The notes under the pieces: model-generated | What the model was told of the DNA's origin: nothing | The model's database searches: none | What the model saw: the letters and a program-made list of their open reading frames with translations, nothing else | Shown here: positions 42,846-45,223 of the stretch, in pieces | Layout of the letters: each line of letters opens with the position of its first letter | Numbering within the stretch: the stretch's first letter is position 1 | Program-made: the position numbers and the translations under genes | Assembly: GCA_963816145.1 (NCBI GenBank) | Contig: CAWFJP010000017.1 | Coordinates: forward strand, 128,001-192,000 | DNA: 64,000 bases | Direction: 5' to 3' | From: an uncultured delta proteobacterium | GTDB lineage: Bacteria; Desulfobacterota; Binatia; UBA9968

Positions 42846-43397
42846 ATGACGCAAATCGGCAAAACTCTTAAGCTAATCTTGGTATTTTTGCTCTTAACCG
42901 GCTGCGGTTCGTCCGTAGCGGTGTGGACCGATGGCGAAGTGCCGTTTGTCCGATCGACACCGGAAGTTATCGAGCGCATGCTCGATCTCGCGCAGGTGAA
43001 ACCAGGCGATGTCATCTACGATATCGGCAGCGGCGACGGCGCGATCATCATCTATGCGGCAAAAAAATACGGCATCAAAGGCGTCGGTATAGAAATCGAT
43101 GAGGGCTTGGTCGAGCGCGCGCGCCGCAGCGCATATGTCGAAAACGTCCAGCATCTGGTCGAGTTTCGCGCCCAGGACGCCTTCACCGTCGACATCTCTC
43201 CCGCCACCGTCGTAACGCTCTACATGCTGCCGGAATTCAACGCCAAACTGCGGCCGATCATGGATCGCCAGCTCAAGCCTGGCACGCGAGTCGTCTCCCA
43301 CGACTATCCGGTTGAAGGGTGGGTGCCGGACCGCATGGAGCCGGTTCGCGGTGACTTCCTCCATGACCACACAGTTCTGCTCTTTGAGATTCGTTAG
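42846..43397 (+). CDS. Class I SAM-dependent methyltransferase with a lipobox-like N-terminus
   Basis: VPFV pre-motif, YDIGSGDG motif I, GVGIEID, TVVTLY, RVVSHD; LLLTGC. Confidence 0.88.
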   Translation: MTQIGKTLKLILVFLLLTGCGSSVAVWTDGEVPFVRSTPEVIERMLDLAQVKPGDVIYDIGSGDGAIIIYAAKKYGIKGVGIEIDEGLVERARRSAYVENVQHLVEFRAQDAFTVDISPATVVTLYMLPEFNAKLRPIMDRQLKPGTRVVSHDYPVEGWVPDRMEPVRGDFLHDHTVLLFEIR

Positions 43398-43414
43398 AAT
43401 AAGCAACCGATCCA

Positions 43415-43586
43415 GCAAAGGGTAAGCCCGAAGCAGGGAAGCCAGCTAATTGTGCCGTCGCAAAATCTTATTTCATGCGTGGCTTTGAGCAATCGTAAAC
43501 TAGCCGGGAAACCCGGTTGCACCCTAGTCAACTTTCGTCTCAGAGGCAGAGGCCCATTGGCTTCACCGCGGAGGGTTACCCTTTGC
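43415..43586 (+). ncRNA. Putative structured non-coding RNA (~172 nt; 6S-like dimensions, family unassigned)
   Basis: Ends pair: GCAAAGGGTAA/TTACCCTTTGC and GAAGCCA/TGGCTTC; inner stems CTTTGAG/CTCAGAG and GCCGGG-AAA-CCCGGT; wobble pairs favour the + strand; terminator follows. Confidence 0.5.
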
Positions 43587-43626
43587 CACGCTCTAACTGC
43601 CAAACGCGCAATTCGCGCTAAAACGC

Positions 43627-43654
43627 AAAAGGCCCCGCATAAGCGAGGCCTTTT
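43627..43654. terminator. Bidirectional rho-independent terminator
   Basis: AAAAGGCCCCGC-ATAA-GCGAGGCCTTTT between convergent units. Confidence 0.75.
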
Positions 43655-43678
43655 AAGAATCACACACTTGAATAGATC

Positions 43679-45223
43679 TTAGTCGCTTGCGGTCGTCGGA
43701 AACATCAGCGACTTAACAGTGACTGGAATGACTTCGGTGATACCCAAGCATTCACCGATATCGATATAGTCCAAATCGCCCACTTCGATGCCGTCAATCG
43801 CAATAATATCCCGAGAAACTTGAAGCTCCTCCCGCAGGATGGCGCCGAGTGACTTGGCGATATCCAAATCCAGGGTCAAATAAAGCGGACACTTTGAATC
43901 GTCGGCTTCTTTGAGAATCTTCGCCACGCCTTCGGCAATGCGCCGGACCGATTGATAGTCCGGCACGCCACTCACGGTTAACGACAAAGCTAACCCGGAA
44001 GTGAAGCAGCTCAGGTCAAACTTTCTGAGCGCCTGTTTGATCGCTTCGGCCACCGACTCGCCGGCGCGGATCGGCGCTTGAATGACCTTTAGACCATGCA
44101 CCGGCAGGGCTTTCTCGTTGGAGACATAGCTGGTGTTGCCGCTCGCTTGGATGGTGTACTCGCCGGCGCCGATGACCGTGGCGCGAATACCTTCGATGGG
44201 CTCGCGCAGGACATCCTTAGGGAGCTTTTTTAAATAGTCGCGCATGTTCTTGCCGAGCACCGGCCCGATGTCGCCGTACGCTTTCGGATCGCGGTCGTAG
44301 ACATGCTCGGAAACGCCACCGGAAAAAACCAGGTGCTGCACTTGCTTGAAACCGGCGTAGTTGACGAACGGCGGCGTCACCATCAGTGAACTCGCCATCG
44401 GCGACTTTGGGCCTTGTTCGATGACCTCGAAGAGAATCTTCGCCATATAGGCGCCGAAGTCTTCTTTCATTTTCTCACTGATCTTCTGGCCGAGCGCAAC
44501 TTTATGGCCGAGCTCATTCATCATGATTCGCCCCGGCTCTTCGATACGCGTTATCTGGTCCTTTTCATCGAAAGCGATGAGCCGCGCCCCGATGCTGATC
44601 GAGGCCGTTTGCGTCACGACGCCTTCTTCGACAAGCGAAAATTTGGTCGTGCCACCACCCATATCGACATTGAGCACGGTCTTGTGCTCGCCCTTCGACA
44701 GATCCACCGCGCCACAACCGTAAGCAGCTAATAGCGCTTCGTGGTTATGCCCCGCCGCCGCGCAGATAAACTTACCGGAGTATTTGGCGAAGTTCTCAAC
44801 GATCGGCTGCGCGTTTTCTTTTTTCAAAGCTTCGCCAGTGATGATCACCGCGCCGGTATCGACATCTTCCGGCGTCAAGCCCGCCTCCTTATAAGCGTTG
44901 TGGATGAAGTCATTCACCTTATCAGTGTCGATCTTGGTCGCCGAGATATAGGGCGTCAGCATAATCGGCGAGCGGTAGAGCACCTCGCGACCGGTGACCC
45001 GGAACTTACCCGATAACGACGCGCCTTCGCGCCGCAGCGTTATGTGCGAAAAAATCAAATGCGATGTGGAAGAACCGATGTCGATGCCCACGCTTTTCAG
45101 CGAAAACATCTCCAACCCCTCGATGTCGGTGACGATCTCATCCTCTTTAATAATGAAATTGTCGGGATGGTCGTGATCGTAGATATCGTCGTGCATCTGT
45201 AGCCTCTGTATAGTATCCGCCAT
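43679..45223 (-). CDS. EutA-like (ethanolamine ammonia-lyase reactivase family) ASKHA ATPase
   Basis: SVGIDIGSSTSHLIFS, TGAVIITGE..KKENA, NVDMGGGTTK, FSGGVS, IRATVIGAG, DYIDIG, VIPVTVKSLMF. Confidence 0.85.
   Translation of the reverse strand: MADTIQRLQMHDDIYDHDHPDNFIIKEDEIVTDIEGLEMFSLKSVGIDIGSSTSHLIFSHITLRREGASLSGKFRVTGREVLYRSPIMLTPYISATKIDTDKVNDFIHNAYKEAGLTPEDVDTGAVIITGEALKKENAQPIVENFAKYSGKFICAAAGHNHEALLAAYGCGAVDLSKGEHKTVLNVDMGGGTTKFSLVEEGVVTQTASISIGARLIAFDEKDQITRIEEPGRIMMNELGHKVALGQKISEKMKEDFGAYMAKILFEVIEQGPKSPMASSLMVTPPFVNYAGFKQVQHLVFSGGVSEHVYDRDPKAYGDIGPVLGKNMRDYLKKLPKDVLREPIEGIRATVIGAGEYTIQASGNTSYVSNEKALPVHGLKVIQAPIRAGESVAEAIKQALRKFDLSCFTSGLALSLTVSGVPDYQSVRRIAEGVAKILKEADDSKCPLYLTLDLDIAKSLGAILREELQVSRDIIAIDGIEVGDLDYIDIGECLGITEVIPVTVKSLMFPTTASD

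Follow-up and report, generated by a model that had tools for sequence, protein, structure and literature searches.

Short repeats that are intergenic, palindromic, present in many copies and structured as RNA are known from several bacteria, among them the Correia (NEMIS) elements of Neisseria, the ERIC (IRU) elements of enterobacteria and the BOX and RUP elements of pneumococci. They often lie at gene ends, where they are co-transcribed into mRNAs and form long hairpins, and effects on RNA processing or mRNA stability have been shown experimentally for families of this type. Wobble pairs that favour one strand have served as an argument that such elements act as RNA. The Correia elements target TA and, to our knowledge, families of this kind are moved by transposases other than the one discussed below, or by none that we know of. 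Among insertion sequences, the IS1380 family appears in ISfinder with target duplications of 4-5 bp and ends beginning with CC, and the ends of ISEcp1 resemble CCnnnATTCCnC. The family is also reported to pick up and mobilise neighbouring foreign DNA by using one true end together with a look-alike end, which gives 'transposable modules' (PMC9330008). TIMEs, which derive from Tn3, are non-autonomous elements of a few hundred bp with AT-rich targets and duplications of 5 or 6 bp (PMC4133298).

The locus considered here lies in a 64-kb stretch of DNA, which as a whole is called the window. An earlier note, made from the letters of this DNA, had described a structured RNA candidate of ~170 nt with a downstream terminator and had suggested either a divergent or second 6S-like RNA or a new class of non-coding RNA. 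Our analysis indicates with good confidence that window 43399-43617 holds the decayed and no longer mobile remains of a miniature inverted-repeat transposable element (MITE), a non-autonomous DNA transposon, and no stand-alone RNA gene.

The insertion between the methyltransferase and EutA genes

The window contains a gene for a SAM-dependent methyltransferase (183 aa; 42846..43397, + strand), assigned from the list of open reading frames and Pfam methyltransferase families, and a convergent EutA-family gene (514 aa; 43679..45223, - strand; Pfam PF06277, E = 4e-122). From the stop of the first at 43397 to that of the second at 43679 we measured 281 nt, in agreement with the gap of ~280 nt in which the RNA candidate had been placed. 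When genomes of the genus were searched with window 42846-44400 as the query, four of them (G019:C7, G003:C29, G022:C653 and G004:C9) had the methyltransferase and EutA genes adjacent, without query positions 555-770, which are window 43400-43615; homology to these genomes runs up to 43399 and again from 43616. In the empty sites the methyltransferase gene ends ...GAGATCCGC-TAA within CTAAA and the junction reads ...GAGATCCG-CTAAA-ACGCAAAAGGCCCCGC..., with the TAA stop inside CTAAA and the terminator hairpin directly after it. The junctions in the window read ...GAGATTCG-TTAGA-A-(linker remnant, core, linker, CAAACGCGCAATTCGCG)-CTAAA-ACGCAAAAGGCCCCGC. The left copy of the 5-bp target duplication is now TTAGA (43394..43398), where the empty site and the right copy have CTAAA; the right copy (43618..43622) is recognised from the empty sites, GAGATCCG-CTAAA-ACGCAAAAGG, and the two copies agree at 3/5 positions. 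The methyltransferase stop codon, TAG at 43395-43397, is inside the left copy and the element begins 2 nt past it. Because the empty sites put TAA inside CTAAA, it follows that the element landed on the stop codon and that the duplication kept a stop, which is now TAG.

Between the two duplicated sites the window copy is incomplete. It starts with a remnant of the MITE 5' linker (43399..43411, + strand), which resembles the 5' linker of other copies, and the left terminal inverted repeat of ~18 nt is missing. The conserved core of 176 nt follows (43412..43587, + strand); this is the segment formerly taken for a structured RNA, and it is delimited by covariance model, nhmmer, fold and covariation, scoring 144.2 bits with the covariance model R1 and 137.8 bits with nhmmer. 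The 3' linker (43588..43600, + strand) was assigned by flank alignment and empty-site comparison. The right terminal inverted repeat (43601..43617) is degenerate, CAAACGCGCAATTCGCG against the family consensus CAACTGCGGAATCCGGG, about 12/17 by eye, and it forms the last bases of the segment that the empty sites lack. The whole insert measures 219 bp, compared with 237-239 bp for intact copies. The loss of the left repeat and the mutations in the right end and the duplication have made the window copy a fossil unable to move. As its duplication is imperfect and its left end missing, it is assigned to the family by its core, by its right end and by the empty sites. We also considered whether the left flank GAGATTCGTTAG could be a degenerate left end; this was ruled out, as the empty sites identify it as the native end of the methyltransferase gene.

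What, then, is the terminator that had been assigned to the candidate? A hairpin does exist at 43627..43656, with A and U runs on both sides, but it is not the candidate's own. It is a native, bidirectional intrinsic terminator outside the element, found beside the stop codon in 4/4 empty-site genomes; because the stop codon is directly followed by it there, it belongs to the host locus, where it is common to the methyltransferase and EutA genes. The same hairpin is found next to EutA in further congeners. A stricter terminator scan did not list the hairpin at ~43627-43656, because it has only 4 T.

The methyltransferase/EutA locus is represented by four empty and two filled sites. A segment of G021:C3 (L007/L080, 54500-54950) is orthologous to window 43380-43660, and as its left junction is truncated in the same way and its right end is homologous, both copies go back to the same insertion event. 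The core in G021:C3, however, is in the opposite orientation and has 138 nt, ~38 nt having been lost; from the alignment this may be read as an inversion between the arms together with a deletion. In the same spacer of another genome (L079, G010:C361:8450-8780), ~100 nt of unrelated sequence occupy the site of the MITE in the window and may be a different insertion at the same spot.

We propose the following history. In an ancestor of the source genome (G000) and G021, one copy inserted into the CTAAA that held the TAA stop of the methyltransferase gene, between the gene and its terminator. The duplication kept a stop codon, and later the left end was lost and the right end and the duplication mutated. 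Most likely the window copy is now a passenger in the 3' untranslated region of the methyltransferase mRNA, of no use to its host.

The MITE family and its IS1380-type partner

A BLAST search with window 43405-43660 against 41 related genomes gave matches in 11 of them, several with 3-7 copies, at 68-90% identity. The neighbouring genes are unrelated from copy to copy; often a copy closely follows a gene of its own orientation and stands where two genes converge. In flanks of 70-110 nt, an outer inverted repeat CCCGGATTCCGCAGTT...AACTGCGGAATCCGGG lies ~15 nt beyond the core on each side, and direct 5-bp repeats stand immediately outside it. An intact copy consists of a terminal repeat (~16-19 bp), a linker of ~15 nt, the 176-nt core, a second linker and the other repeat, ~237-239 bp altogether; 81/94 elements are 230-240 bp long. 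The end motif, with at most two mismatches, was found in 27/31 genomes of the genus, with as many as 37 occurrences in a single one, while the reversed control gave 0-3; plus/minus pairs of the motif lie ~220 bp apart, and their sequences confirm elements of 237-239 bp. Among 94 distinct elements bounded by such ends, the 5-bp duplication is perfect in 58, has one mismatch in 21 and two to four in 15, and unrelated flanks match in 4.5% of pairs. Short, non-coding and bounded by terminal inverted repeats and duplications, and found at many sites with filled and empty alleles, the element is a MITE. The candidate had been viewed as a stand-alone unit, its reader having noticed neither the terminal inverted repeats nor the target duplications; in fact it is a transposon. 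A search for an open reading frame running through the element, in which only frame 0 was adequately tested, found one in 15/78 copies on the + strand and 29/78 on the - strand; no frame stays open throughout the copies, and a small ORF is unsupported.

The duplicated site is (T/A)-T-N-A-(A/T), or TTNAA-like, with T2 and A4 present in 58/58 perfect duplications. Its TNA centre is TGA or TAA in 29/58 of these, and at several loci (L024, L016 and the window) the duplication contains or touches a host stop codon, so that the reading frame keeps its end after insertion. Since stop codons are frequent within TTNAA sites, insertions fall on gene ends and leave the genes intact. After de-duplication, 133 insertion sites were available for study.

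Some elements depart from this layout. One of 195 bp (L049, G004:C8:630965-631359) has the same terminal repeats, an unrelated interior and a perfect TTTAT duplication. Two in G044 (L056 and L057; 68-69 bp) are little more than two ends with no core, and their 5-bp flanks do not match exactly. In a further copy (L059, G044:C10:78659-82100, at about 283-1588) an insertion of ~1.3 kb interrupts the core at model position ~125-131; the first open reading frame of this insertion starts like what we take, by eye, to be an IS110-family (DEDD) transposase. Insertion sequences of the IS110 type are known to target repeated palindromes.

The distribution of the core was examined with R1, a covariance model of 177 positions and 26 pairs. 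Matches were found in 70/123 genomes of the order, at least ~720 in number and at least 22 in each of 12 genomes; by family, with the source genome left out, they occur in 66/89 genomes of f1, in 3/5 of the sister family f2, where they are weak (E ~1e-4), and in 0/28 of f3. In the source genome R1 matches at 5 places with E ≤ 1e-4 and at 7 with E ≤ 1e-3, and decay is visible in most of these copies. None of 150 other genomes sampled from the phylum had the core, and a source gene that would hold it outside the MITE was likewise sought in vain in these 150, the weak f2 matches being otherwise all that was found. In metagenomes, a degenerate motif of 37 nt occurs in at least 120 contigs; all 80 loci taken from the metagenome matches listed had a core match by nhmmer, and nearly all the full-length ones had the end motif on at least one side. 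The unpublished genomes G005, G085 and G093 are counted in the figures given here, and no statement depends on these alone. Homologues of the candidate thus exist, but in a form that does not suit an RNA gene: they are multi-copy, at unrelated loci and bounded by transposon ends.

Which transposase could move these elements? A search of the genus with the IS1380-family model NF033539 of NCBIfam gave matches in 13/31 genomes, 6 of them over the cut-off. At 5 of 12 loci examined (L111-L115) the transposase gene is framed by CCGGATTCCGCAGTA...TACTGCGGAATCCGG, 1544-1546 bp apart; the transposase is over the cut-off in L111-L114, and L115, with 178 bits, is just under the cut-off of 180 bits. Perfect 5-bp duplications surround the IS in L113 (TTGAA/TTGAA) and L114 (TTAAG/TTAAG). 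We suggest from these shared ends that the MITEs are moved in trans by the DDE transposase of this 1.54-kb IS, with insertion at TTNAA-like sites leading to the 5-bp duplication. Beyond ~16-19 nt the ends of the IS and of the MITE have nothing in common and, because the likeness stops there, a simple internal deletion fails as an explanation and the core is cargo, not a remnant of the IS. The capture of foreign DNA by a look-alike end, as described for IS1380-family elements, would explain how a core unrelated to the IS was acquired.

The IS partner was found only via the transposase model. Co-occurrence of the MITE and the IS is weak in the draft genomes: among the five with the IS (G043, G006, G024, G011 and G045), R1 matches the core in G006 only. 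At 40 loci with a single end motif in MITE-rich genomes we saw no transposase with these ends; 32 of them had a second end within 450 bp and were ordinary MITEs or short forms, and the other 8, L059 included, were truncated or bare ends. The source genome has two IS1380-like frames, at C17:112943-113968, before the start of the window, and at C11:421454-422461, with 161 and 146 bits, below the family cut-off; beside L117, the one of these sub-cut-off frames that was examined, no MITE ends were found.

The conserved fold and what may select it

The minimum free energy fold of window 43405-43660 (+ strand) has an 11-bp stem, a bulge, CCC/GGG, a 3x3 internal loop and a second stem of 10-12 bp, which enclose a GCCGTCGCA..TGCGTGGC hairpin and a CTTTGAG/CTCAGAG arm with the tip GCCGGG-AAA-CCCGGT. 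The stems and arms formerly listed by eye are hereby reproduced, with an energy of -93.1 kcal/mol compared with a shuffle mean of -74.8 (sd 5; z = -3.66) and none of 200 shuffles equal to it. The - strand of the same segment reaches -108.9 kcal/mol (z = -4.52), and because its fold is equally significant, a single sequence does not decide the strand. In the family the constant part is a rod, in the window 43415-43445 paired with 43558-43586, made of helix P1, a 3x3 internal loop CGA(A)/GGA and helix P2; it encloses an interior that is branched, variable and deleted in some copies. Across the family the rod is 28-31 bp long.

Across the copies the rod is conserved, with compensatory changes. 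RNAalifold places 34 pairs in 24 well-aligned copies (A1), 19 of them with compensatory changes. In 34 copies (A2), 92.3% of the cells are paired compared with 82.4% in shuffles and 35-45% in slid controls, 17/26 pairs change on both sides compared with 9.1 in shuffles, and 0/500 shuffles reach any of five measures; the fold put forward from one sequence does covary. The impression that G-U pairs favour the + strand also holds family-wide. In 21 rod pairs of 105 non-redundant copies (<96% identical) we counted 1898 Watson-Crick cells, 172 G-U, 38 A-C and 97 others. With two columns left out in which G-U is a common state there are still 93 G-U and 37 A-C, and by column G-U exceeds A-C in 13, A-C exceeds G-U in 3 and the two are tied in 3. 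As the copies lie in both genomic orientations, a strand-biased mutation should cancel. These counts point to selection on the single-stranded form of the + strand, RNA or DNA, at the level of the element, and since neutral junk would neither covary nor favour G-U, some selection must act on the fold, at any rate in multiplying lineages. The unpaired blocks next to P2 (GGAG, CAAAGUC, AGAGG and CCCAUUG) are at least 90% conserved. Inside the rod, RNAalifold and an exhaustive scan for stacked pairs found no family-wide helix in the 105 copies, where the alignment of the interior is unreliable and subfamily-specific hairpins are possible.

For copies already resident in a genome the picture is different. 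In an orthologous trio (L020, L026 and L005) the core is 0.83-0.86 identical, compared with 0.78-0.94 for third codon positions of the flanking genes, so orthologous copies drift at a neutral rate and no constraint is seen at the level of the host. P1 differs between the orthologous copies in the source genome and in G021 at two positions, both of them on both arms and thus compensated; this could reflect continued selection, and it could equally come from conversion between arms or between copies. The orientation of host genes was called with a codon-usage model that found the right frame in 275/300 test segments: among the 133 sites, 13 are convergent, 3 divergent, 10 co-directional with the element in sense and 13 co-directional in antisense, and 94 have flanks that are short or uncalled. 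Towards co-directional genes of the host the element thus has a random orientation (p = 0.68). On balance the fold is important in the lineages that multiply, but its importance for the resident copy is not demonstrable.

Could the core be a functional RNA that rides on the MITE, so that a + strand transcript folded into the rod helps the element or its host and the copy in the window stays active as RNA although it cannot move? Possible roles would be a module bound by RNase III or another protein, a stabiliser or insulator at mRNA 3' ends, or a small RNA acting on the transposase. The covariation in 17/26 rod pairs, the excess of G-U over A-C in copies of both orientations and the conserved blocks by P2 all speak for such a cargo, and the core keeps its orientation relative to its two different linkers, as 58 of 99 other copies have the usual arrangement, none is flipped and 41 are ambiguous. 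Against this stand the neutral drift of orthologous copies, the indifference to the direction of host transcription, the lack of a family-wide helix inside the rod, the inverted and shortened core at the same insertion in G021, and elements with the same ends that have no core (68 bp, L056) or an unrelated interior (L049). The flanks upstream of the copies are not conserved either, and a promoter scan revealed no promoter-like site in or before the element; a search for sigma-54 and sigma-70 promoters in the linker or the core, by eye and by scan, gave nothing convincing. Eleven RNA runs hold small shares of the locus, and among the low-depth assembled contigs of the four examined none spans 43146-43691, which indicates neither absence nor presence of a transcript. 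We consider a working RNA cargo possible but doubtful. A stronger form would make the core a true structured RNA, absent from the catalogues and carried by IS1380-type ends like a bacterial SINE, with its + strand fold selected because the RNA itself promotes the spread or persistence of the element; this seems unlikely to us. Of the proposed new RNA class there remains a fold that is real, uncatalogued and covarying, possible as a class only as the cargo of a MITE.

The rod might instead be selected as DNA. As a single strand or cruciform the palindrome would bring the ends together, or its arms would serve the transposase as subterminal binding sites, a situation known from piggyBac-like elements; a well-formed rod would then raise the rate at which a copy transposes, with no RNA involved. 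It would fit that selection is visible only in multiplying lineages and not in resident orthologous copies, and that the inverted-repeat arms alone covary, with no local hairpin. G-T wobble stabilises DNA hairpins too, for which reason the G-U/A-C asymmetry cannot separate RNA from single-stranded DNA. The single copy in G021 with its interior inverted between the arms suggests that these interact as DNA. However, the autonomous IS copies lack the arms, so the transposase does not need them, and the minimal elements and those with a foreign interior but the same ends also carry target duplications. Binding sites in double-stranded DNA, moreover, would give no excess of G-T over A-C, and PMC9330008 describes the transposition pathway of the IS1380 family as not known. 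A role as DNA is improbable in our estimation.

6S RNA and other known systems

The suggestion of a divergent or second 6S-like RNA, or of another stand-alone small RNA gene with its own terminator, has in its favour the length of ~176 nt and a long interrupted stem that joins the two ends. In addition, RF00013 finds no 6S RNA in the source genome or in 24 congeners (0/25), which leaves the housekeeping 6S of these genomes unaccounted for; in the sister family f2 the model finds it in 5/5 genomes in the arrangement zapA-6S-ygfA. Yet Rfam does not support the suggestion at this locus. The 64-kb window has no match to any family at gathering score, in keeping with the earlier note, which had seen no tmRNA, RNase P, SRP or familiar riboswitch motifs in the candidate, and 6S (RF00013) gives no signal in the window. 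With E up to 10 over 43300-43750 nothing falls on 43412-43587, 6S included, and five weak terminator-like matches all lie in 43592-43750, the region of the terminator hairpin. Four congeners keep the terminator and lack the element at the orthologous site, and the element is multi-copy at unrelated loci with transposon ends around it. Its interior is branched, variable and sometimes deleted, with no evident conserved central bubble. The flanking genes encode a methyltransferase and EutA, so the zapA/ygfA context is indeed missing here, and the canonical zapA-ygfA pair lies elsewhere in the genome, on contig C31, with a spacer of 357 nt. A core that is mobile, multi-copy and dispensable cannot be 6S, and we regard the 6S-like reading as extremely improbable. 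A stand-alone small RNA gene of any other kind is equally improbable, as no promoter-like site is found and the terminator pre-exists in the empty sites.

Outside the window, the 357-nt zapA-ygfA spacer of the source genome (C31:87618-87992, locus L245 at ~1126-1490) folds into a long irregular rod with z = -1.3. Rfam has no match in this spacer, which is a candidate site for a divergent 6S RNA.

For annotation, the outcome is that a false lead for 6S or a new small RNA has been removed. The core of a MITE beside a host terminator can pass for an RNA gene, and comparison with empty sites is a quick discriminator. The analysis also documents a family-wide, high-copy MITE with TTNAA targets in an uncultured lineage of soil and sediment. 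Its interior does not come from the IS, its helix is compensated and its wobble favours one strand, which raises the question of what the passenger fold does, as RNA or as DNA. A literature search on IS1380 and miniature inverted-repeat transposable elements returned no description of this MITE family.

How does it compare with the systems already described? With 6S RNA (RF00013) the core shares its length and a long interrupted helix that pairs the ends, but it has no match to the model, no zapA-ygfA context and no evident conserved central bubble, and it is multi-copy, mobile and dispensable. It resembles Correia, ERIC, BOX and RUP in kind, with ends and target sites that differ. The TIMEs have ends of the Tn3 type (PMC4133298), where these are of the IS1380 family. 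The nearest relatives are the IS1380-family elements (IS1380, ISEcp1, ISPme1): the MITE has its terminal repeats in common with the 1.54-kb IS of the NF033539 type, and both the IS and the MITE make a 5-bp AT-rich target duplication. In contrast to deletion derivatives of IS1380, this MITE has a conserved, covarying rod of 176 nt as its interior, and its range is a single bacterial family within an uncultured lineage. We conclude that these copies form a new family within a familiar class of elements, in which the point of interest is the strand-biased conservation of the passenger fold.
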